A program made the translations under genes and the position numbers. DNA of 64,000 bases from the NCBI GenBank assembly GCA_963727715.1, contig CAVSGX010000007.1, positions 36,688 to 100,687 of the forward strand, written 5' to 3'. The notes beneath the pieces are model-generated. The model made no database searches. It was not told the origin of the DNA and worked only from the letters and a program-made list of their open reading frames with translations. Positions 17,364-62,709 of this stretch are shown here, piece by piece (positions within the stretch are counted from its first letter, which is position 1; the number at the start of each line of letters is the position of its first letter). The stretch is from an uncultured bacterium. Its GTDB lineage: Bacteria > Patescibacteriota > Minisyncoccia > Phycocordibacterales > DATDWN01.

Positions 17364-19178
<1,815 letters not shown>

Positions 19179-19182
19179 AATT

Positions 19183-19578
19183 TTATTTCAGTATTGCCAG
19201 TATATTTTCTTCCTTTATTAAATAATATTCCTCACCACCGACCGTCACTTCGTCATAGCCGTATTTGGAAAAGGCCACCGTGTCGCCGATATTTACAGAG
19301 ACCGGCACGCGCTTGCCGTCCTTCCATTCACCTGCCCCAACGGCAACAACTTTGCCCTGCTCCGATTTTTCCTTGGAATCCGTGTCTGGCAAAATGATGC
19401 CAAAGTTGCTTTTCTTTTCCAATTCCTCTTTGGTGAAAGGTTTGATCAAAACCCGACTGCCCAAAGGCATAATTTTTGATTTGCCGGTCTGGGATTTTGC
19501 TGAAAGATTTTTAATGGCCTTTTTAGCCGGTTTTGACTTTGTTTTTTTTGTTGGCTTTTTCATCATTTTTTTCTTCAT
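19183..19578 (-). CDS. groES: Co-chaperonin GroES with a Lys-rich N-terminal extension
   Basis: PLGSRVLIKP...GIILPDT...GKVVAVGAG...IGDTVAFSKYG are GroES signatures. Confidence 0.9.
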   Translation of the reverse strand: MKKKMMKKPTKKTKSKPAKKAIKNLSAKSQTGKSKIMPLGSRVLIKPFTKEELEKKSNFGIILPDTDSKEKSEQGKVVAVGAGEWKDGKRVPVSVNIGDTVAFSKYGYDEVTVGGEEYYLIKEENILAILK

Positions 19579-19639
19579 TACAGTTTGTGTTAGCTATTAA
19601 GTGTTGAAAGTATATGTATTTTCCGGTCTGTCGTCAAAC

Positions 19640-19668
19640 TTGACAAAAAATATGAGATGTGATAGACT
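19640..19668 (+). promoter_or_regulatory. Sigma-70-type promoter TTGACA-N17-TAGACT driving the GC-rich orphan ORF
   Basis: Near-identical promoter at 24521-24549 (cttgacaaaaaat...gtgata.act). Confidence 0.55.
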
Positions 19669-19740
19669 ACGATAAGAATCGACCTGTGGAACGGACTGGG
19701 CGAGCAACCCTACCTAATTCCCGGCGATAGAAGGGGAAGT

Positions 19741-20301
19741 ATGTCAGTCAATGTGTACCTCAAAAACGAAGTTCGTAATCTCGATGGATTTGTCCTCGGG
19801 AGCACGGATAACATGGGTCGCTACACGAGCAGGACCAAATTCAAGGGTGTAATTCTCTCCGAGGAGGGTGATCGACTATACCTCGGCATCCACAGCGAAA
19901 ATCAAGAAGTCCCGGAATGCCTCGCAGACATGGTCGAGGAGATCAGTGTGTGTGACTTCTTTTGTCCGAATCGTGGAACTCGCGAAACGGGTATCTACCG
20001 GCATAACTCGGCTGAAGCCGAGCTGGAGGTCGGGTGTGATAGCCGACAGTTGCGATTCAACATTCACATTCGGAGCAAGAAAATGAGCGATGTTCGCGAA
20101 CTGCTCCGTCTGATCAAGATCGGCGCGATTCGACCAAACGAGAGTTATGAGGGAAGTCAGCAGGGCAAGTCCCACCGACAACTCGAAGACGAACTTGCTT
20201 CTGTGAGACAGTTCGTCAACGAACTGGTTCGGGGAAAGATATTCTTTGTCCGGGCAGCCTACATCGTCAGGCGACTCAACCAGATTTTCAACAGCAAGTG
20301 A
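19741..20301 (+). CDS. Hypothetical protein (186 aa), GC-rich (~52%) orphan gene
   Basis: Compositionally foreign ORF. Own promoter and strong GC hairpin terminator. No recognisable domain. Confidence 0.5.
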   Translation: MSVNVYLKNEVRNLDGFVLGSTDNMGRYTSRTKFKGVILSEEGDRLYLGIHSENQEVPECLADMVEEISVCDFFCPNRGTRETGIYRHNSAEAELEVGCDSRQLRFNIHIRSKKMSDVRELLRLIKIGAIRPNESYEGSQQGKSHRQLEDELASVRQFVNELVRGKIFFVRAAYIVRRLNQIFNSK

Positions 20302-20342
20302 CGGATACGTCCGTCGGGGCGCGACCTAGTCGCGCCCTTTTC
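20300..20342 (+). terminator. Tandem GC-rich hairpin terminator
   Basis: gacggatacgtccgtc followed by gggcgcgacctagtcgcgccc, then a T-run. Confidence 0.7.
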
Positions 20343-20383
20343 CATTTGCAAAAAATTTAAATTCAAGTATACTTATCCTCACT

Positions 20384-20614
20384 ATGACTCCGATTCATAT
20401 CGTTTCTGTCTTTCAAATCGTATTGGCAGTGCTCCTCATCTGCGGAGTGCTTTTGCAGCAATCCGAAGCGGGCCTCGGTGGAGCTTTTGGCGGTGGCGAC
20501 GGTTTTTCCTCGGGTCACCACACCAAACGTGGAGCGGAAAGAACAATATTTATTGCTACAATTGTTATTTCAGTATTATTTGCTGTCAGTTCCATAAGTC
20601 TACTATTATTGTAA
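20384..20614 (+). CDS. secG: Preprotein translocase subunit SecG
   Basis: 76 aa. Two TM helices separated by a Gly-rich loop (LLQQSEAGLGGAFGGGDGF). Confidence 0.75.
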   Translation: MTPIHIVSVFQIVLAVLLICGVLLQQSEAGLGGAFGGGDGFSSGHHTKRGAERTIFIATIVISVLFAVSSISLLLL

Positions 20615-20616
20615 AA

Positions 20617-20745
20617 GAATTAATCTAATTTCTAATTATTCTAATTTCTAAATAAATCCCAATACCCAAAAATCAAAATCTTGGTCATTGGGATTTGGTG
20701 CTTGTTTAGAAATTAGGTTAATTAGGTTAATTAGAAATTATTATT
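20617..20745. repeat. AT-rich palindromic intergenic repeat, family 1 copy C (upstream of the SBP gene)
   Basis: aattaatctaatttctaattattctaatttctaaataaatcccaatacccaa ... ttggtcattgggatttggtgcttgtttagaaattaggttaattaggttaattagaaatt. The arms are reverse complements of each other. Confidence 0.75.
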
Positions 20746-20757
20746 TCTATTATCTTC

Positions 20758-22512
20758 GTGAACATCGAATCTTTTCGCAAATTGTTTCAAAAAGAATGGC
20801 ATCTGCCATTTCACCACAAGATGACAAAAGTTGTCAGCTCTTTTTCCTTGACCGAAAAAATTATTTTTTATTTTTTTGTCGGCCTTTTTACGCTGTCCGC
20901 TTTGTTACTTCTTTGGCAAGTTAATAAATTTTTCCTAGTGCAAGTGCCGGATTATGGCGGAAGCTTCAGCGAGGGTGTGGTCGGCTCAGCCCGTTTTGTC
21001 AATCCGCTCCTTGCCGTTTCTGATCCGGATCGCGATTTGACTGAGCTGGTTTATTCTGGACTTTTACGAGCCACGGCGGATGGAGGGCTCACACCGGATT
21101 TGGCTGAAAGTTACAGCATTTCTCCGGACGGCTTAACTTACACATTTGTCATCAGAAAAAATGCCAAGTTCCAAGATGGCGCGCTCGTCACCGCCGATGA
21201 TGTTGTCTTTACCATCCAAAAAGCTCAAGACCCAACCCTGCAAAGCCCACGTAAAACAAACTGGGACGGCGTGACGGTCAAAAAGATTGGTGATCGAACG
21301 GTGCAATTTGTTTTAAAACAACCTTATTCCCCTTTCATTCAAAACGCCACTCTGGGAATTTTGCCGGAACATATTTGGAAATCGGCTTCCATTGATGAAT
21401 TTCCGTTCAGTGAGTGGAATATCAAAGCCGTCGGTTCCGGACCTTACAAAATAGATTCAGTTGTATACACTTCCGGTGGATTGCCATCAGAATATCACCT
21501 TTCCGCCTGGAGCGGTTTTGCTCTTGGTCGACCTTTCATTTCCAACATCATCATCAAGCTTTATCCTGATCAAAAAAGTTTGATTTCGGCTTACAATGAT
21601 GGTAGTATTGATAGTGTTCAAGGTTTGTCGGCTCAAGAACTGTCCGAATTAAAAATCTCCGATGGACAAAAGATTATTGCTCCTCTGCCGAGAGTTTTCG
21701 GAGTATTTTTTAACCAAAATCAAGCCCCCGTTCTGGTCAATCCGGAAGTCAGACAAGCTCTAGAGATGGCCACGGGCAAACAGATTATTGTTGATCAGGT
21801 GCTTGGCGGATATGGTCAAGTTGTAGATAGCCCCATCCCACCGAAAGAAATTTCAACAAAACCAAATGGCGGATTTGACCAGGTGGCAGCCGACGCCAAG
21901 GCTATTGCTCTTTTGACTTCTCACGGCTGGAAACAAAACACTGATGGAATTTTTCAAAAGAAAACCGGCAAAACAACCCAGACTTTAGCTTTCTCTATTT
22001 CCACATCAGACGCGCCTGATTTGAAAGCTGCGGCCAATCTTTTACAACAGCAATGGCAAAAAATCGGCGTAGCTGTGACAGTCAAGATATTTGAAATAAA
22101 CGATTTGAACCAAAATATCATCCGTCCTCGTAAATATGATGTATTGCTCTTCGGTGAAGTGGTCAGCGAAAATGCGGACTTGTATCCATTTTGGCATTCT
22201 TCAGAGCGACTCGACCCCGGACTCAATGTGGCAATGTATACTAACCTCAAAGTCGACAAAATATTGGAAAATTTGAGACAAACAATCAACCCGACCGATC
22301 AAGAAAATTTATATCAAAACTTCGAAACACAAATCGCTACCGACAGACCAGCCATTTTTCTTTACTCCCCTTATTTTATTTACATCACCCCGAAAAAAAT
22401 ACAAAACATAAAAACGGGAACACTCACCACTCCAGCCCAAAGATTTAGCGATGTCTACAGGTGGTATATTGAAACAAATGAAGTTTGGAAAATATTTACT
22501 AAAAACTATTAA
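20758..22512 (+). CDS. ABC transporter substrate-binding protein, family 5 (peptide/nickel, OppA/DppA-like)
   Basis: SBP_bac_5-type sequence (LAESYSISPDGLTYTFVIRKNAKFQDGALVTADDVVFT). N-terminal signal/TM. GTG start in the track; the true start may be the Met at ~20818. Confidence 0.8.
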   Translation: MNIESFRKLFQKEWHLPFHHKMTKVVSSFSLTEKIIFYFFVGLFTLSALLLLWQVNKFFLVQVPDYGGSFSEGVVGSARFVNPLLAVSDPDRDLTELVYSGLLRATADGGLTPDLAESYSISPDGLTYTFVIRKNAKFQDGALVTADDVVFTIQKAQDPTLQSPRKTNWDGVTVKKIGDRTVQFVLKQPYSPFIQNATLGILPEHIWKSASIDEFPFSEWNIKAVGSGPYKIDSVVYTSGGLPSEYHLSAWSGFALGRPFISNIIIKLYPDQKSLISAYNDGSIDSVQGLSAQELSELKISDGQKIIAPLPRVFGVFFNQNQAPVLVNPEVRQALEMATGKQIIVDQVLGGYGQVVDSPIPPKEISTKPNGGFDQVAADAKAIALLTSHGWKQNTDGIFQKKTGKTTQTLAFSISTSDAPDLKAAANLLQQQWQKIGVAVTVKIFEINDLNQNIIRPRKYDVLLFGEVVSENADLYPFWHSSERLDPGLNVAMYTNLKVDKILENLRQTINPTDQENLYQNFETQIATDRPAIFLYSPYFIYITPKKIQNIKTGTLTTPAQRFSDVYRWYIETNEVWKIFTKNY

Positions 22513-22516
22513 AAAC

Positions 22517-22657
22517 AATTAATCTAATTTCTAATTATTCTAATTAATCTAAATAATAACTAAACCCCAATGACCAATAAGTTTCTATTATCATTTTGGG
22601 AATTTAGACATTGGGATTTATTTAGAGATTAAAATAATTAGGTCAATTAGAAATTTT
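22517..22657. repeat. AT-rich palindromic intergenic repeat, family 1 copy D (upstream of rnj)
   Basis: Begins aattaatctaatttctaattattctaatt like copy C. Contains ccccaatgaccaa...cattgggatttatttagagattaaaataattaggtcaattagaaatt. Confidence 0.75.
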
Positions 22658-22660
22658 ATT

Positions 22661-24460
22661 ATGAATCCATTACAAACCAGAACCCCTTCAACAACCAGAA
22701 GTCATCGTGTGGTTAGGCACCGTTACAGACCAGAAATGGCTGCCATCAGAGCGGCCAAAAAAGACGATATTATTCCGGAATCCGGTGATAATATCCGCAT
22801 AGTCACACTTGGCGGTGTGGAAGAAATCGGTAAAAATATGACGGTTGTGGAATACAAAAATGACATTATCGTCATTGACTCCGGTTTTCAATTCAAAGAT
22901 GACGAAACACCTGGAGTAGATTACATTTTGCCGAATATAAAATATCTGGAAGACAAAAAAAACAAGATCCGAGGAGTAATAATCACTCACGGACATTTGG
23001 ACCACATTGGGGCTATCCCCTACATTATGGATCGCATCGGCAATCCGCCGATTTACACTCGCACTCTGACCGCCATTATGATAAAAAAACGGCAAGAGGA
23101 GTTTAAACATCTTCCAAATCTGGACATTCGGGCAGTTGAAAAGGAAGACACCATTAGACTTGGTTCTATGAGAGTGAAATTTTTCAATGTCACTCATACC
23201 ATTCCTGACGCCATGGGAATTATCATTGAAACACCTTACGGTGTCATTGTTACTCCGGGAGATATAAAACTTGATCATGATGACGGTGTGCCGACCGCGG
23301 CCGAGGAAAAAGAATACGCTCGTTTTGCCAAAGAAAAAGTTTTGCTTCTTATGATGGATTCGACCAATGTCGACAACCCGGGTTTTTCCACACCGGAAAA
23401 ATTAGTGCATAAAAATCTGGAAGAGATTATCAAGAACACCAAAACCAGAATGATAATCGGCACTTTTGCCTCCCAGCTTGAGCGTATCATGAAAATAATT
23501 ATGATTGCCGAAAAATACGGCAAGAAAGTGGTCATTGAGGGACGCAGTATGAAAAATAATATTGACATCGCCATAGCCATCGGAATGCTGAAAATTAAAA
23601 AAGAAACTATTATTTCCGGCGAACAGATGGAAAATTATCCGCCCGATCGCATTGTCGTCCTGGCCACCGGCGCTCAAGGCGATGAATTCGCCGCCCTGAT
23701 GCGAATGTCCAACAAAACACACAAATATTTTCGTATCACTCCGCGCGACACTGTTGTTCTTTCCAGCTCCATCATCCCCGGCAACGAAAAAGCGGTTCAA
23801 AAATTGAAAGACAATCTGGCCAGACAAGGCGCCAAAATAATTCACTACCGCACATCGGATGTTTACATTCACTCCACCGGCCACGGCAATCGTGGCGAGC
23901 TGGAATGGTTGCACAAAAAAATTCGTCCGAAATTTTTCATACCGATACACGGTTCGCACTATATGTTGCGAGTCCATGAAGACTTGGCCAAATCTCTCGG
24001 CATGCCGACAGAAAATATTATCGTGCCGGACAACGGGGCCATTATGGAAATTCAAAACCATGGACAAAAATTTGTCAGATTGAAAGAGTCGGCTCCTAGC
24101 GGAATGATGATGGTGGACGGTTTTGCCATCGGCGATGTTTCGGAGTTGGTTATTCGCGACCGCAAAATGCTGGCCCAAGACGGAATGTTTGTCATCATCG
24201 CTTCGGTCAACACCAAGACAGGCAAACTGAAAAAATCGCCGGATATTATTTCGCGCGGTTTTGTTTATTTGCGCGAGTCGCAAGATCTTTTGGCTCAGGC
24301 CAGATTGATTATCAAAAAAACCGTGGAAGAAACGACCAGTGGAATGAACCCAATCAATTTTGATTTCGTCAAAAATTCCGTCTCTGAACAGCTTAGTCGA
24401 TTCCTTTTCCAAAAGACCGCCAAACGCCCGATCGTCATTCCTGTCATTTTGGGAGTTTAG
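22661..24460 (+). CDS. rnj: Ribonuclease J
   Basis: MBL domain HxHxDH (ITHGHLDHIGA). Beta-CASP and C-terminal domain. 599 aa. Confidence 0.9.
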   Translation: MNPLQTRTPSTTRSHRVVRHRYRPEMAAIRAAKKDDIIPESGDNIRIVTLGGVEEIGKNMTVVEYKNDIIVIDSGFQFKDDETPGVDYILPNIKYLEDKKNKIRGVIITHGHLDHIGAIPYIMDRIGNPPIYTRTLTAIMIKKRQEEFKHLPNLDIRAVEKEDTIRLGSMRVKFFNVTHTIPDAMGIIIETPYGVIVTPGDIKLDHDDGVPTAAEEKEYARFAKEKVLLLMMDSTNVDNPGFSTPEKLVHKNLEEIIKNTKTRMIIGTFASQLERIMKIIMIAEKYGKKVVIEGRSMKNNIDIAIAIGMLKIKKETIISGEQMENYPPDRIVVLATGAQGDEFAALMRMSNKTHKYFRITPRDTVVLSSSIIPGNEKAVQKLKDNLARQGAKIIHYRTSDVYIHSTGHGNRGELEWLHKKIRPKFFIPIHGSHYMLRVHEDLAKSLGMPTENIIVPDNGAIMEIQNHGQKFVRLKESAPSGMMMVDGFAIGDVSELVIRDRKMLAQDGMFVIIASVNTKTGKLKKSPDIISRGFVYLRESQDLLAQARLIIKKTVEETTSGMNPINFDFVKNSVSEQLSRFLFQKTAKRPIVIPVILGV

Positions 24461-24520
24461 TTTTACAAAAAATAACAAAATAACGGCTCTGTTGAGCTGT
24501 TATTTTTTGTTACCAAAAAC

Positions 24521-24549
24521 TTGACAAAAAATTACAAAGGTGATATACT
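24521..24549 (+). promoter_or_regulatory. Sigma-70-type promoter TTGACA-N17-TATACT, paralogous to the one at 19640; now separated from its ORF by the IS30 insertion
   Basis: cttgacaaaaaattacaaaggtgatatact. Points into the IS30 left end. Confidence 0.5.
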
Positions 24550-24573
24550 TCTAGGCAGATTACCGACCTCCAA

Positions 24574-25530
24574 TTACCCCTCAAGTAGGACAGAACTAAT
24601 GTTTGAATAATAACTCATTGGCGCGCGGAAGCCAATCACTTCTCTCGGTCGGTTGTTTAGGAAGGAATGTATTTCTTGCAATTCTTCCTCAGTGACTGAC
24701 TCAATATCTCTTCGTTTAGGCACAAAACATCTGATCCATCTGTTGGTGTTTTCCACCAGACCTTTTTCCCAAGAATGGTATGGATGTGTAAAATAGATTG
24801 GCACTTGCAGGAGAGTTTCCAACTCTTTCCAACAGGTGAATGCAATATCGTTGTCTGTGGTGATGCTCTTCAATTCAACACCATGGAACAGACGGGAAAG
24901 CGCGGCACGAATAGTGTCGCGTTTTCTGTTGGGCAGTTTCCTGACCCATGTTCTTTTGGCTTGCCAATCCACAGCAACCAAAAGTACCCACGAACTGTCT
25001 TTGGAAACGATGAAATCGAGCTCAATGTGTCCTAGACCTTTTCTCTCCGGTCTGACATCAATATACTTCCTGCCATCCTGAATGTGCTTCCAATGATTTC
25101 GTTTTCTCCCACCCTTGTGATTGTTCCAACCCCAAAAAAGCAGGTGGTTTAGACCTCTCGACTCGGCAAATTTGTATATGGCTTTGGCCGAGCAGATGAT
25201 ACCCATTTCACATTCAAGATACCCGCTAATCTGCTTCGGCGACCAATGATACGGCTTGGTTAATCGTTCCACCACGAATCGACAGAGAAACGGGTCAAGC
25301 GCCACTTTCAGACACTGCTGTTTGGCTCGCCATCTTTTCATTGAAACTTTCTGCTTGGCTTTTTCCGCTTCATACACCCCATTAACACTGTGTTTTTGTA
25401 TTTCTCTGCTCACAGTGTTGACACTCCGACCGAGAAATTCGGCAATTTTGCGAATGGCCGAACCGGCGCAATACATCTTTTCAATACAAAACCTCTCTTC
25501 AAAAGACAAATGATGATATTTGTTTTTCAT
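24574..25530 (-). CDS. IS30 family transposase
   Basis: N-terminal HTH. DDE region with TDNDIAF and YFTHPYHSWEKGLVENTNRWIR (IS30 signature). The C-terminus is encoded through the IR. Confidence 0.85.
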   Translation of the reverse strand: MKNKYHHLSFEERFCIEKMYCAGSAIRKIAEFLGRSVNTVSREIQKHSVNGVYEAEKAKQKVSMKRWRAKQQCLKVALDPFLCRFVVERLTKPYHWSPKQISGYLECEMGIICSAKAIYKFAESRGLNHLLFWGWNNHKGGRKRNHWKHIQDGRKYIDVRPERKGLGHIELDFIVSKDSSWVLLVAVDWQAKRTWVRKLPNRKRDTIRAALSRLFHGVELKSITTDNDIAFTCWKELETLLQVPIYFTHPYHSWEKGLVENTNRWIRCFVPKRRDIESVTEEELQEIHSFLNNRPREVIGFRAPMSYYSNISSVLLEG

Positions 25531-25594
25531 ATGACAATTAAAATTAATTTTCGACTAATGCATTAATTCTAACTGTCCTACTTCAAAGGTGGCT
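24574..25594 (-). mobile_element. IS30-family insertion sequence (~1.0 kb)
   Basis: Single IS30 transposase gene. Imperfect terminal inverted repeats share the core aagtaggacag (24583-24593 and 25573-25583 as the reverse complement). Confidence 0.75.
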
Positions 25595-25665
25595 AGGGGC
25601 GATTTGCAGATTCCTCGGATAGGGACAGGCAAATTTGGTAGTACTTTGATTGATGGAGAAATGAG

Positions 25666-25986
25666 ATGTTGAATTTGGATGGTGTTCGTCCAGCCGCCAA
25701 GGCGGCTTTCGAGAAGTTTCTCACTGAGAAAGTGGTGTGGATTTCCACCAAATGCTGGGGGATAAACCTGAAATCAACCATCGATGAACTGAATGAAATC
25801 ATCGGTGCTGGCATGAAGCTGGGTGTCGCAGAAAACTGTCGGCGACTCACGGAACAGGAATTGGCCGAGGTTTTCGAGACCGTGCACCCGCTGAAGACTC
25901 TCAAGATGGAAGCGGAGATTCAGAGAGTCCTTCGATCGGTTCTCATCGAAGTTGGTGTGAACCCCGAGCTCTTCACCAGCAAGTAG
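25666..25986 (+). CDS. Hypothetical protein (106 aa), GC-rich orphan gene
   Basis: ~52% GC ORF with its own GC hairpin terminator. The leader sequence is related to that of the 19741 gene. Confidence 0.45.
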   Translation: MLNLDGVRPAAKAAFEKFLTEKVVWISTKCWGINLKSTIDELNEIIGAGMKLGVAENCRRLTEQELAEVFETVHPLKTLKMEAEIQRVLRSVLIEVGVNPELFTSK

Positions 25987-26003
25987 TTTCCGGCCTACCA
26001 TCA

Positions 26004-26033
26004 AGCCCGACCTCGAGAGGGGTCGGGCTTTTA
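26004..26033 (+). terminator. GC-rich hairpin terminator
   Basis: agcccgacctcgagaggggtcgggct followed by ttt. Confidence 0.7.
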
Positions 26034-26244
26034 CGTGGAAAATATTGCTAAACAAATTTCGTCGAGCCAATACTTTTCCGGCACATCGCGCAGGAGGTTA
26101 GAAAACAACGACGCGGGCCTGAGTATACAGGCCGAGGAAGATTGTTTTCTTGACCGACGAGCGGGAAGAAAATTTTCAGTAGAAAATTATTCTGGTGGCG
26201 GAAAAGTGTTGGCTCGTAAGAAATTTGTGTTGTATAATATCCCC

Positions 26245-27423
26245 ATGAACGGACTTATCTTGCCTTTCAAACAAAACAAAACCTTGAGGATGATTTTTTT
26301 GTCAAATATTTTGCTTTCTTTTCATTACTATCTCATTGTCTACATCAACTCCACATTTCTCTCCCAATATTTTTCCGAAACTCAAATCAGCACCCTTTAT
26401 GTTATCGGTTCAATTTTGAATATTTTTCTTTTCCTTAACGCAGCCAAGATTTTAAACAAAATCTCCAATTATAAAACCATCCTTTATGCCATCGCTTTTG
26501 AAATGCTGGCTGCTTTGGGTCTCTGCCTGGCCAACAATTCATTTTTGGTTGGACTTTATTTTGTCATTCATACGGTTATCGTCAATTTTATCGCTTTCAA
26601 TCTGGATGTTTTTTTGGAAGGCACAACAACGGATGAATCTCAAACCGGCGAAATCCGTAGTATGTACCTGACCATCGGCAACATCACTTGTGTTATCGCC
26701 CCGTCAATCGTGGCCGTATTCTTGGTTAAAAATATCTATTGGCATATCTATTTTCTGTCATTCTTGTTTCTGATCCCATTGTTTTATTTTGCTCGAAAAT
26801 ATTTGAAAAACACAAACGAAAAGCAGATAGAGCATATTAAAATACGCGAAACAATTAAAAAATATTTGGCTGAAAAAAATCTTTATAATATTTTCAGTGT
26901 TCAATTCTTGTTGCAAATTTTTTACACGTATATGATTATTTACACTCCTCTTTATTTGGAGAAATACATAGGCTTTTCTTGGACAGAAATCGGCATTATG
27001 TTTTCCATTATGCTTTTGCCTTTTATCATATTTGAGATACCCGTAGGCGAACTGGCAGACAAGAAATATGGCGAGAAAGAATTTATGTCCATTGGACTTT
27101 TGATTATGGGCATGGCTACATTGTTTATCAGTTTTGTCACCATGAGAAATTTCTGGGTTTGGACGATTATTCTTTTCATCACTCGCATTGGAGCGTCTTT
27201 TGTGGAAGTAACATCGGACAGTTATTTTTTCAAAAAAGTGGATCAAAACAAAGCTGATGTTATCAGCTTCTATCGTTTAACCCGCCCTCTGGCCGGAGTG
27301 GTTGCCCCTCTTATTGCCGCTTTATGTTTGCAGTTTATTCCCTTTGAATACACTTTTATCGTTATCGGCGCGATTTTGATTGTCGGGACGCGGTATAGCT
27401 TAGCGCTGGAAGATACGAGATAA
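26245..27423 (+). CDS. MFS-type transporter (12 TM)
   Basis: Hydropathy and size. TATAAT at 26234-26239 lies 6 nt before the ATG. The track ORF begins at 26035 but the N-terminal 70 aa are non-membrane and probably untranslated. Confidence 0.6.
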   Translation: MNGLILPFKQNKTLRMIFLSNILLSFHYYLIVYINSTFLSQYFSETQISTLYVIGSILNIFLFLNAAKILNKISNYKTILYAIAFEMLAALGLCLANNSFLVGLYFVIHTVIVNFIAFNLDVFLEGTTTDESQTGEIRSMYLTIGNITCVIAPSIVAVFLVKNIYWHIYFLSFLFLIPLFYFARKYLKNTNEKQIEHIKIRETIKKYLAEKNLYNIFSVQFLLQIFYTYMIIYTPLYLEKYIGFSWTEIGIMFSIMLLPFIIFEIPVGELADKKYGEKEFMSIGLLIMGMATLFISFVTMRNFWVWTIILFITRIGASFVEVTSDSYFFKKVDQNKADVISFYRLTRPLAGVVAPLIAALCLQFIPFEYTFIVIGAILIVGTRYSLALEDTR

Positions 27424-36119: not shown

Positions 36120-36777
36120 TCAACCCATCGCGAATGTGGATGATGCGATCGGCATACTCGGCGATGTCCGCCTCGTGAGTAATCAAGATAATAGTGCGTC
36201 CAAGTTCGCGGTTCAGTTTCTGAAATGTACCGATAACAATTTCGCCGGTTTTGGTGTCTAAGTTTCCGGTCGGTTCGTCGGCCAGAATTAGTGTTGGGTT
36301 GTTGACTAATGCCCTGGCAATGGCCACACGCTGAATTTGTCCGCCGGAAAGCTGGTTGGATTTGTGAAAGAAATGACTCTCGTCAAATCCAGCTGAAGCC
36401 AGAGCTTCCCGAGCGCGTTTTTCTCTTTCCTTTTCTTCCACACCTTCATAAATCAACGGCAACATCACATTTCGCAAAACGGTTGTGCGTGGCAAAAGGT
36501 TGAACGACTGAAAAACGAAACCGATTTTGTCTTTGCGAATGTCGGCCAATTCATCGTCGGAAAATTTGGAAACATCTTTACCGTCCAAAAAATATTTTCC
36601 TGAAGTCGGCGTGTCCAGAGCGCCGAGAATGTGCATCAAGGTTGATTTGCCGGAGCCGGACGGGCCCATAATAGCTAAAAATTCACCGTCTTCAATGACA
36701 AAGCTAACGCCGGCCAAAGCTTTCAGGGAAACATCCCCAGTTTGATATACTTTTGTGACATTTTTGACTTCAATCAT
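36061..36777 (-). CDS. ABC transporter ATP-binding protein (MacB/LolD-type)
   Basis: Walker [10 protein letters not shown]. Signature LSGGQIQR. Walker [12 protein letters not shown]. Confidence 0.9.
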   Translation of the reverse strand: MIEVKNVTKVYQTGDVSLKALAGVSFVIEDGEFLAIMGPSGSGKSTLMHILGALDTPTSGKYFLDGKDVSKFSDDELADIRKDKIGFVFQSFNLLPRTTVLRNVMLPLIYEGVEEKEREKRAREALASAGFDESHFFHKSNQLSGGQIQRVAIARALVNNPTLILADEPTGNLDTKTGEIVIGTFQKLNRELGRTIILITHEADIAEYADRIIHIRDGLIVSDSKSHKKRQIKHHMEK

Positions 36778-61510: not shown

Positions 61511-61757
61511 AGTCTTTTTGTGAATATTCGTCCGTAAAATTTGAACTTGATTAATTTTCAAGCAAATTTTTTCACCGAGCTTCTGTTTCCAAAAACTCTG
61601 GGTTATCCATCACCGTCGGTGAGCATTGTGTTGCATCTTAACGCATAGAGTAATCTATGCATAAATATTCACAAGCAGTTTTTTATGTTGGCAAACTATC
61701 ATCAAACTTTTTGAAAAGTTAGACTAGCTTAACAGCCATTTTCAGTATACAAAAACA

Positions 61758-61787
61758 CCCCTCACCAATGCAAGCATTGGTGAGGGG
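61758..61787. promoter_or_regulatory. 14-bp-stem GC-rich hairpin ~40 nt downstream of the VR (DGR target-recognition hairpin and/or target-gene terminator)
   Basis: cccctcaccaatgc-aa-gcattggtgagggg. On the minus strand it is followed by tgttttt. Confidence 0.6.
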
Positions 61788-61825
61788 TAGAAGAGAAAAA
61801 GTAAAAAGGTTAAAGGGAAACTGCT

Positions 61826-62554
61826 TCACGAAGACCATTCGTCGGGATGGAGTAGTCCAGACTGTACCGGTTCACCTTCACCTCGACCAGCGCACGGATA
61901 GAAGTACACGAACGGGATGTCGCCGTCGGAATAGCGAGAACCGGCACAGAACGTGATACCCTTTTCATCGAGATGTTTTCCTGTCTCGACAAAATACTTG
62001 AGCCCAAGCACCATTCTTTCGAGCAAAGTCATGCCGACCTTGCCAGTCGGGTCGGCCTGACGGGTAGATTGACCGAGATACTTCTCGTCCGGTTCCACAC
62101 CGTCGCGAACCCAGATAGCGTAGCTCGTGGCCGAGGTCCGAGTGTTGACTGTCACACTCGCGTCCAAGTCCTCGACGTATGTCCAGACCTTGAACTTGGC
62201 CCGCATAACTGCGAGTGTTTGGTTCATTGTGAGCCCCGCCCAAATGAAAACGAGACGCCACGAACCCTCAGTTGGCTTTCCCGGGATCCTCACCGTCGAG
62301 AAGTCGGCATAGATCTTGAAGAGGTCAAGATAGAACTTCTCCCACTCGGCACGAGTATCGGCGAATTCGTCGATTGCGATTTCGAACACTTCCTGTAATT
62401 TGCGTCGCAGAACAGTGTCCTTGTGCGTGAGCAGGTTCTGTACCTGCTCGAACGAAAGTTTCGCCAACACGCCGGCGACGAAGCTGGCGAGAGCGAGAAG
62501 CATCTCCACTGTTGGCCTCTTGGCCATGGAGGTTTGTCCTGTCTTATGTGACAT
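61826..62554 (-). CDS. DGR target (variable) protein; C-terminal ~38 aa encoded by the variable repeat
   Basis: GC-rich ORF. Start reassigned to MSHKTGQT, preceded by the SD aagagga and a TTGACA-N17-TATAAT promoter. The C-terminus ...CAGSRYSDGDIPFVYFYPCAGRGEGEPVQSGLLHPDEWSS is encoded by the VR. TR codons AAT/AAC correspond to TAT/TTC/TGC/TAC/ATC in the VR. Confidence 0.8.
   Translation of the reverse strand: MSHKTGQTSMAKRPTVEMLLALASFVAGVLAKLSFEQVQNLLTHKDTVLRRKLQEVFEIAIDEFADTRAEWEKFYLDLFKIYADFSTVRIPGKPTEGSWRLVFIWAGLTMNQTLAVMRAKFKVWTYVEDLDASVTVNTRTSATSYAIWVRDGVEPDEKYLGQSTRQADPTGKVGMTLLERMVLGLKYFVETGKHLDEKGITFCAGSRYSDGDIPFVYFYPCAGRGEGEPVQSGLLHPDEWSS
61828..61941 (-). repeat. DGR variable repeat (VR) at the 3' end of the target gene
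   Basis: Aligned to the TR by eye: ~11 substitutions, all at TR adenines, plus a 1-nt indel. The shared 3' end cccgacgaatggtcttcg is IMH-like. Confidence 0.85.
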
Positions 62555-62659
62555 TTTGTTCCTCTTTTTTTGTTTGTATGCCGACCATCTCTGATTCAGG
62601 TCAGCAGATTGTGAAGAAACGAAAAATGACGCTATCAAACGCCATTTGAAATCTGGCTA

Positions 62660-62688
62660 CATTATACACCTAACTAAATTTCCTGTCA
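62660..62688 (-). promoter_or_regulatory. Promoter of the DGR target gene (TTGACA-N17-TATAAT on the minus strand)
   Basis: Reverse complement reads cttgacaggaaatttagttaggtgtataatg. Confidence 0.55.
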
Positions 62689-62709
62689 AGTAGTTAAAGA
62701 ATCTATATT

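Follow-up and report, generated by a model that had tools for sequence, protein, structure and literature searches.

The 64,000-nt stretch of DNA considered here (the window: positions 36,688 to 100,687 of contig CAVSGX010000007.1, assembly GCA_963727715.1) comes from an uncultured bacterium. It is AT-rich (~42% GC), and its gene content fits the Paceibacterota, in the Candidate Phyla Radiation (CPR, or Patescibacteria); the best matches to its RNase J, at 66-82% identity, are metagenome-assembled genomes labelled Paceibacterota, Zambryskibacteria, and Parcubacteria. The window holds at least three compact units with the same build: a promoter, a leader, one open reading frame (ORF) rich in GC at third codon positions (GC3), and a GC hairpin. 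Two of these, cassettes 1 and 2, lie among housekeeping genes, the second interrupted by an IS30-family insertion sequence (IS). An earlier reading made from the sequence alone had taken them for paralogous, mobile cassettes; the comparisons below suggest that they are, on balance probably, two independent, non-homologous, moron-like accessory units at insertion hotspots, with the third unit elsewhere in the window. Their features, with the 5' untranslated region (5'UTR) of cassette 2 given in two parts, are as follows.

19640-19668, plus strand: cassette 1 promoter; TTGACA, 17-nt spacer, TG-extended TAGACT; 10 of 12 consensus positions
19678-19728, plus strand: leader RNA motif; ~50-nt nested hairpin in the 5'UTR of cassette 1
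19730-19737, plus strand: Shine-Dalgarno sequence GAAGGGGA of cassette 1
19741-20301, plus strand: ORF186, the cassette 1 ORF; GC 0.511, GC3 0.608
20300-20344, plus strand: cassette 1 terminator; adjacent hairpins at 20300-20315 and 20316-20338, then a T tract
24521-24549, plus strand: cassette 2 promoter; TTGACA, 17-nt spacer, TG-extended TATACT; 11 of 12 consensus positions
24550-24574, plus strand: 5' stub of the cassette 2 5'UTR, which stays with the promoter after the IS insertion
~24575-25589, minus strand: IS30-family element, boundaries ±~2 nt
24574-25530, minus strand: IS30 transposase ORF; 318 aa, HTH_38 and rve
25590-25665, plus strand: 3' part of the cassette 2 5'UTR, including the Shine-Dalgarno sequence GGAG; aligns with the uninterrupted leader of locus L002
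25666-25986, plus strand: ORF106, the cassette 2 ORF; GC 0.513, GC3 0.632
26003-26036, plus strand: cassette 2 terminator; 12-bp GC hairpin, then UUUU
61751-62689, minus strand: cassette 3; same promoter-leader-ORF-hairpin build
62689-62661, minus strand: cassette 3 promoter; TTGACA-17-TATAAT with TG
between promoter and ORF, minus strand: cassette 3 leader, ~105 nt
62554-61826, minus strand: cassette 3 ORF; 242 aa, GC3 0.63
61787-61758, minus strand: cassette 3 GC hairpin, then a T tract

The sequence-only reading had placed promoters at 19640-19668 and 24521-24549, and both coordinates were confirmed: each has a TTGACA -35 box, a spacer within 17±1 nt, a TAnnnT -10 box, and the TG extension, and both are predicted to be active. 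In a consensus scan of TG-extended sites the cassette 2 promoter ranked first and the cassette 1 promoter joint second, and the three best sites with TTGACA, a 17-nt spacer, and a TG-extended -10 box, on both strands of the 64 kb, are exactly those of cassettes 1, 2, and 3. The joint 30-nt pattern of the first two occurs only at these two positions in the window, vs. zero expected. The GC content of ~52% proposed for both ORFs was close to the measured values, and both are GC3-rich: together with two further ORFs they have the highest GC3 among the real ORFs of the window (0.61 for ORF186 and 0.63 each for ORF106 and the cassette 3 ORF, vs. 0.40-0.49 for typical window genes). Each cassette also ends, as proposed, in a strong GC hairpin, with predicted energies of -28.3 kcal/mol (z -5.4 vs. 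shuffled sequences) for cassette 1 and -27.4 (z -3.6) for cassette 2. Both have the form of an intrinsic terminator, a GC-rich hairpin and U tract after the stop codon; in cassette 1 the hairpin at 20316-20338 has 10 pairs, eight of them G-C, followed by TTTCCATTT, and the terminator adjoins the secG promoter (20345-20373). The expectation of further cassettes held in part: cassette 3 has the same build, and no additional copy of the cassette 1 leader was found in the window. Library searches run on the cassette 3 ORF returned no protein family match.

Cassettes 1 and 2 stand in a series of genes for which many relatives are available for comparison:

17364-19578, minus strand: groEL and groES, upstream of cassette 1
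20384-20614: secG-like gene, directly after cassette 1
20758-22512: gene for an SBP_bac_5 protein, between the secG-like gene and the RNase J gene
22661-24460: RNase J gene, upstream of cassette 2 and the IS30 element
26248-27423: MFS transporter gene, downstream of cassette 2

The gene string groEL-groES-secG-SBP-RNase J-MFS-GH is conserved in ~80 relatives. The comparison set consisted of 80 RNase J loci from species-representative genomes (1.32 Mb), in which the groES|secG gap (slot A) and the RNase J|MFS gap (slot B) were measured. Slot A is shorter than 350 nt in 20 of 32 loci and at least that long in the other 12; for slot B the corresponding figures are 51 and 25 of 76. Most of the short gaps, in either slot, are under 150 nt. 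Occupied slots, in about one third of relatives, carry inserts of 0.35-3.4 kb, among which one build recurs: TTGACA-N17-TATAAT, a short leader with a Shine-Dalgarno sequence, a single ORF, and a GC hairpin followed by a T tract (for example in loci L018, L021, L054, and L040 for slot B, and L010, L029, L033, L049, and L059 for slot A). The cargo is diverse: there are two related pairs among 68 insert ORFs, and Pfam recognises almost nothing in them. Their GC content is usually above that of the host (0.55 vs. 0.35-0.39 in L018, 0.59 vs. 0.45-0.47 in L049, 0.64 vs. 0.46-0.48 in L065) and sometimes below it (0.49 vs. 0.61 in L038, 0.30 vs. 0.46-0.49 in L085). Strict consensus promoters are concentrated here as well, with five of the 12 found in the 1.32 Mb falling within large slot A or B inserts, which make up ~3.2% of the DNA (binomial p ~2e-5, by our own arithmetic from the promoter and slot counts). 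In the window, cassette 1 takes up exactly the interval from the -35 box of groES (19637-19632, minus strand) to that of secG (20345); in an empty slot A, such as that of L007, these two boxes are ~12 nt apart. The groES|secG and RNase J|MFS gaps are hotspots for variable inserts across the Paceibacterota. The idea of a mobile or rapidly exchanging cassette type carrying cargo of foreign composition thereby gains support: the slots are short or empty in most relatives and hold unrelated inserts in about a third.

Several smaller features of these slots may be recorded. The native groES promoter (TTGACG-17-TATACT, 19637-19609, minus strand) stands back to back with the cassette 1 promoter, and across 19609-19645 the -35 boxes of the two form a near-palindrome, cgTCAAacTTGAca. 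Between the cassette 2 terminator and the MFS start (26063-26216, plus strand) is an imperfect ~150-nt hairpin with 22-nt arms, 91% complementary, which has an exact 25-mer, GAAAATTTTCAGTAGAAAATTATTC, in common with L010; it could represent either a structured RNA or a repeat resembling miniature inverted-repeat transposable elements, and it has no Rfam match. L010 itself has a 98-nt element in both slots A and B, the copies being 89% identical with a completely different outer stem. In L033, two tandem slot A cassettes have a common terminator stem, ACCCGCGAC/GTCGCGGGT. A structured element, ttctggagcaacc...gtcaagaa..gccttgac...ctgcgg.gtctccagaaa, lies at 6650-6800 of L013 and 3100-3230 (reverse strand) of L037, one copy in slot A and the other in slot B, the two being 73% identical over 118 nt. 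In L040 (11686) and L054 (8028) the -35 box of the slot B promoter overlaps the RNase J stop codon (ggggTTTGACA), so that the insert starts at the very end of the upstream gene; the L054 cargo (8110-8685) weakly matches a cold-shock domain at its N-terminus (Pfam CSD, below cut-off at E=8e-4), and it also has a linker rich in proline and an HPD tripeptide in its C-terminal segment.

Both cassette proteins had been described as orphans with no detectable homology, which does not hold. For ORF186, a profile search of 1.84 billion cluster representatives returned 371 clusters at E<=1e-3, 245 of them at E<=1e-10 (a word-indexed search found a single relative), and ORF106 has one relative, 52% identical. 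All ORF186-family members with a taxon name are Patescibacteria (Microgenomates, Magasanikbacteria, or "Patescibacteria group"). The proteins are ~200 aa long, with the N-terminus MSVNVYL, motifs RE(T/S)GIYRHxSAEAE and IKxGxIRPxESYEGxQxG, a coiled-coil segment of variable length, and a C-terminal WPxC...RIxxIL; residues R81, G84, Y86, G128, P132, and S135 are invariant in an alignment of 55 sequences. The predicted fold has an N-terminal alpha/beta domain and C-terminal helices. The N-terminal domain was compared by superposition with TATA-binding protein (TBP); its beta-sheet face may be TBP-like. An AlphaFold2 model was confident when a 25-sequence alignment was supplied (a two-sequence alignment gave a pLDDT of 48.3), and it has no close structural relative and no fold match in BFVD. 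The gene is always solitary, with varying neighbors: mreB, dnaJ/PemK/dnaK, PNPase, UvrD, PIF1, RNase HII, or CofD. Two alternatives to these gene assignments were considered and rejected. A start further upstream (P0002 is annotated from a GTG 32 codons up) disagrees with most listed members, whose first residue aligns with the ATG position of the profile; and the GC-rich stretches are not non-coding RNAs, both ORFs being conserved at the protein level.

Upstream of ORF186, orthologues with 30-45% protein identity have long identical nucleotide runs before the ATG. The reading frame of this conserved stretch shifts among orthologues, and it is therefore non-coding. It can be folded as a nested hairpin, with an outer helix AUCG(A)CC/GGCGAU containing a bulged A, inner helices GGAA/UUCC, GG/CC, and GGG/CCC, conserved internal loops AAC, ACU, and UA, and an apical loop of 7 nt (consensus CCAGUAA; CGAGCAA in the window). 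The Shine-Dalgarno sequence begins 1-2 nt past the 3' strand of the outer helix, and AGAAGGAG is conserved in the leader alignment, giving for 16 distinct leaders the consensus AUCG(A)CUKG-GGAACGGACUGGNCCAGUAAN'CCUACCUAAUCC-CRRGCGAU-AGAAGGAG-N6-9-AUG. The pattern GGAACGGACTGG..AG.AA..CCTA is found in 21 metagenome contigs and 0 viral contigs; where a start codon is adjacent, the contigs encode the ORF186 family or, in one lineage, other ORFs.

The structure is supported by covariation. RNAalifold returns the nested hairpin from the leader alignment with seven covarying pairs. Over ten core pairs, 96.9% of cells are paired, vs. 84.6±1.7% in shuffled alignments, none of 500 of which attains this value, and 20 cells have double changes, vs. 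6.3±1.8 in shuffles, distributed over six of the ten pairs; sliding the 3' partners by 1-3 columns brings pairing down to 26-69%. Compensatory changes include GGAACGG...UACC to GGAACGC...UAGC in three leaders and G-C to U-A in L117; the innermost pair is G-C in eight leaders, C-G in six, and A-U in one; and the outer helix of L116, from a 31%-GC genome, is AUGUU/AACAU in place of AUCG.C/G.CGAU. Minimum free energy folds of single sequences have the same shape in the window, L092, L116, and L087b. Thermodynamic support for the structure was considered and set aside (z ~0 to +1.6), leaving covariation as its sole support; modest fold stability is common where a motif binds a ligand or protein and has many internal loops. 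A covariance model of the 16 leaders scores 75.2 bits on the cassette 1 leader (19674-19746); neither the rest of the window nor the 80 related loci yielded another copy. Against Rfam 15 (4227 families), the only hits to pass the gathering threshold were tRNAs, relaxing the cut-off to E<=10 added nothing but noise, and the leader had no match; in the literature consulted, neither cassettes of this kind nor this RNA motif are described for CPR. The leader is put forward as a candidate for a new cis-regulatory RNA family absent from Rfam. It resembles known cis-regulatory leaders (riboswitch candidates, ribosomal-protein leaders) in being a compact, covarying 5'UTR structure just before a Shine-Dalgarno sequence, with highly conserved unpaired nucleotides; it differs from them in lying outside Rfam 15, in having no clear expression platform, and in preceding three unrelated ORFs in one lineage.

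That lineage is represented by L087, a Microgenomates contig in which the leader model has a second match (48.8 bits) to a sequence not used to build it, and by L102. L087 carries two cassettes (L087a and L087b) within a grpE-dnaK...dnaJ region, and the related contig L102 has a single cassette, in a position orthologous to that of the first L087 cassette. Among the three, promoter plus leader is 78-87% identical over ~116 nt and the terminators are 87-90% identical over ~77-79 nt. Their ORFs, however, are unrelated: one is a 214-aa ORF186-family member, one a 112-aa protein with a hydrophobic N-terminal segment, and one an acidic 85-aa protein, all with GC of 0.54-0.60 vs. 0.43 in the flanks. 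Since the same promoter, leader, and terminator surround unrelated ORFs, the non-coding frame acts as a reusable chassis; the leader is therefore not tied to one protein, and any protein that binds it would act in trans on a small regulon. The terminator motif, ..GYGCCUGUUUGGACGGGG, also accompanies the leader in L090, L092, L098, L099, and L118; the cassette 1 terminator in the window differs from it. A cassette type with shared frame and swapped cargo is real, then; the demonstration comes from the cassette 1 family in another lineage and not from a comparison of cassettes 1 and 2. A search for other shared chassis among the 40-odd hotspot inserts turned up palindromic repeat elements only, none of them matching cassette 2 or 3.

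Base composition bears on how long such units have been resident. Every ORF186-family member with enough flanking sequence (13 of 13) has higher GC than its flanks, by 5-15 points with a mean of +10.4, and ORF GC correlates with flank GC (r=0.85, p=2e-4). Because the excess is family-wide and tracks host GC, it does not fit a single recent capture from a high-GC genome, and the proposed acquisition from a higher-GC host is, as a recent event, not supported for ORF186. The pattern would fit either a lasting GC offset in genes long resident in their hosts or ongoing exchange among CPR; possible causes of the offset include selection on mRNA, a GC-richer reservoir, and biased conversion. Long residence leads to the first alternative to accessory units, that these are ordinary, vertically inherited native genes, highly expressed, with codon bias accounting for the high GC3 and rearrangement for their scattered positions. 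The wide distribution of the ORF186 family in CPR, the correlation with flank GC, the strong promoters, and the similar overall GC of groEL in the window (0.492) are all in keeping with it. It is nevertheless unlikely: GC3 in the family exceeds that of chaperone genes in the same loci (0.735 in L087, vs. 0.487 for dnaK); the leader motif and gene are in none of 80 relatives within 10 kb either side of RNase J; the slots carry unrelated ORFs in different genomes; and the orthologous sites of L087 and L102 have the same frame with different ORFs.

Cassette 2 has a different history. The single known relative of ORF106, P0004, is found at loci L002-L005; its locus in L002 has an uninterrupted promoter, a 92-nt leader, and ORF, and aligns with the window on both sides of the IS. 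The IS30 element interrupts a leader that is continuous in L002 and is therefore a secondary insertion. It had been placed exactly between promoter 2 and its leader; the identification as IS30 stands, and its position is adjusted to ~25 nt downstream of the -10 box, inside the 5'UTR. It is the only copy in the window. Its transposase matches Pfam HTH_38 (E=1e-15) and, more weakly, rve (E=3.5e-6; 27.6 bits, under the cut-off of 32.6), and its imperfect terminal inverted repeats contain the core AAGTAGGACAG. A copy in L036, 72% identical, has the same ends, and the boundaries were set by comparison with it; no target duplication is visible at either copy. The element thus resembles the IS30 family in its size (~1 kb), its single HTH_38 plus rve transposase ORF, and its imperfect terminal inverted repeats, and differs in that no 2-3 bp target duplication is recognisable at the window copy. 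ORF106 is parted from its promoter by ~1 kb of IS DNA in antisense orientation, and because the insertion uncouples it from this promoter it is probably silenced or poorly expressed. Within the divided leader, ATTACC (24559-24564) can pair with GGTAGT (25637-25642), and the L002 counterpart is ATCACC/GGTGAT, a comparison of two sequences only. On both flanks of the L002 cassette (562-606 and 1149-1193) is the same long GC hairpin, 45 nt and 98% identical; upstream gene and cassette there therefore share a terminator.

The second alternative is the one originally proposed: that a single promoter-leader chassis was duplicated in this genome and later given different cargo, so that cassettes 1 and 2 are paralogues with near-identical promoters and related leaders. 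The promoters are indeed alike at 24 of 30 positions, 2 standard deviations above the mean of 17.4 (standard deviation 3.3) for 276 control pairs of similarly strong promoters from unrelated cassettes. This equals the identity of the cassette 2 promoter to its L002 orthologue (24/30) and exceeds that of the L087a and L087b promoters, proven chassis paralogues (23/30). Both leaders also have CGACC ~12-18 nt past the -10 box, and the L087 and L102 cassettes provide a precedent for chassis reuse. The promoter likeness appears, however, to come mostly from the shared class consensus cTTGACAaaa...TGnTAnAnT: spacer identity is 8 of 13, equalled or exceeded by 26 of the 276 control pairs, and unrelated control pairs attain up to 23/30. 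The covariance model of the cassette 1 leader has no match in the cassette 2 leader (24550-25665) at E<=10 with filters off, and the words CGACCT and GGCGAT, on which a relationship had been based, are not kept in L002. ORF186 and ORF106 give no BLASTP alignment even at E=100, and the two terminators are unrelated. Paralogy of cassettes 1 and 2 is not demonstrated by any of these comparisons, and common descent within this genome is distinctly unlikely.

What the cargo proteins do was a further question. The sequence-only reading had likened the units to toxin/effector or immunity cassettes, a suggestion compatible with the accessory-unit interpretation and consistent with small, diverse, variable genes at hotspots and with the PemK toxin gene adjoining the L087 and L102 cassettes. 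Searches of Pfam, PHROGs, PADLOC, NCBIfam, and PDB sequences gave no match for the ORFs tested, not every pairing of ORF and library having been run, and PDB profile matches for the cassette ORFs were coiled-coil noise. Each unit consists of one gene lacking a partner, inspection by eye showed no evident signal peptide in ORF186 or ORF106, and the varied neighbors of the ORF186 family have no defense link. Toxin, effector, or immunity and defense functions are on this evidence very unlikely.

Actual phage morons, or prophage or plasmid remnants, would account for a promoter-ORF-terminator build of atypical composition, which is the definition of a moron, and for a second GC-rich foreign island in the window (a TIGR-Tas ORF, described below), but this origin is scarcely credible, since the flanks are housekeeping genes in conserved order and every search made for a phage, plasmid, or viral origin was negative: tblastn of three ORFs against 50,697 phage records, plasmid searches with ORF186 and ORF106, IMG/VR for the leader and terminator motifs, viral contigs for relatives of ORF106, PHROGs, and BFVD folds.

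The resemblance to morons is one of organization. Phage morons, described by Hendrix and colleagues, are autonomous promoter-gene-terminator units between phage genes. Like them, the window units have one gene with its own promoter and terminator, are cleanly inserted between transcription units, deviate in base composition, and belong to a diverse cargo mostly without known function; unlike them, they lie amid housekeeping genes of a CPR chromosome, phage genes are absent from their surroundings, and the phage and viral collections searched contain no homologues of them. Oliveira, Touchon and Rocha reportedly described, in 2017, chromosomal hotspots between core genes at which horizontally transferred genes accumulate. 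Slots A and B are similar in being a few intergenic positions, flanked by core genes, with different accessory genes in each genome, and in collecting small mobile elements (the IS30 copy, the repeated hairpin element found in slots A and B). They are different in their unusually small inserts, mostly of one gene with near-consensus promoters, and in the very reduced host genome. Integron cassettes are likewise small single-ORF units with diverse, unfamiliar cargo, a hairpin-forming 3' end, and cargo exchanged inside a conserved frame, but they are promoterless and end in attC sites, on which an IntI integrase acts, whereas the window units have their own promoters and ordinary intrinsic terminators. 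The window units are not integron cassettes, because they have their own promoters, form no array, and do not adjoin an integrase: they stand singly among housekeeping genes, attC and intI having been considered without a formal search.

If cassettes 1 and 2 are independent accessory units, each step of their function can be suggested. A near-consensus sigma-70 promoter with extended -10 box would make a unit expressible wherever it is inserted; the terminators would shield the downstream secG and MFS genes from read-through; the leader RNA, on binding a protein or small ligand, could control how translation starts or how stable the mRNA is; and acquisition or exchange of cargo might proceed by homologous recombination, via the flanking core genes or via the conserved leader and terminator. 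Several points weigh against this interpretation. The tracking of host GC fits long residence, and "accessory and mobile" may overstate the case for ORF186. No target duplication, flanking repeat, or adjacent recombinase was seen at the cassette edges. The comparison with relatives covers slots A and B and not the slot of cassette 3, and chassis reuse was observed in a single lineage. As to the leader, its fold is not stabler than shuffled sequences (z +1.0 to +1.6 in the window), and the covariation comes from 16-17 related sequences, assessed by shuffle and slide counts rather than R-scape.

A bolder version, which is tentative, is that CPR have a recombinase-free modular cassette system whose chassis, a promoter, a GGAACGGACUGG nested-hairpin 5'UTR, and a terminator, serves in two roles. 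It may be a shared regulatory device, whether as a riboswitch of a new class or as an operator to which an RNA-binding protein attaches; such a trans-acting protein could conceivably be of the ORF186 family. It may also provide homology arms for swapping unrelated GC-rich cargo. Cassette 1 of the window may then be the founding and commonest form.

CPR bacteria have tiny genomes in which most accessory genes are without known function, and to our knowledge almost nothing is known of their gene regulation and gene acquisition. The groES|secG and RNase J|MFS gaps provide two concrete hotspots, flanked by housekeeping genes and comparable across dozens of related genomes. ORF186 represents a family of several hundred clusters whose named members so far are all Patescibacteria and whose fold, predicted with confidence, has no close structural relative; its leader is a compact, covarying RNA, absent from Rfam, on which ligand and protein binding can be assayed directly. 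One frame around three unrelated ORFs suggests a simple route by which reduced genomes could try out new genes with the control elements already in place. As the promoters are near the E. coli consensus, the modules should be easily testable in surrogate hosts.

Two other features of the window are of separate interest. AT-rich, palindromic intergenic repeats of ~130 nt (taattaggttaattagaaatt...cccaatgaccaa...), predicted to form long hairpins, occur at 19036-19177, 20617-20745, and 22517-22661, one behind each of three successive genes. At 5197-6501 (minus strand) is a 434-aa ORF with the highest GC in the window (57.6%, GC3 0.67), which matches NCBIfam NF052498, "TIGR-Tas system RNA-guided endonuclease" (E=7e-41; 140.5 bits, cut-off 100), and has an additional weak match to IS110/Transposase_20; the TIGR-Tas system is described in PMC12045711. 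The ~300-nt leader of this ORF (6502-6800) contains repeated "ttcgtaagaa" units, which may constitute its TIGR array.

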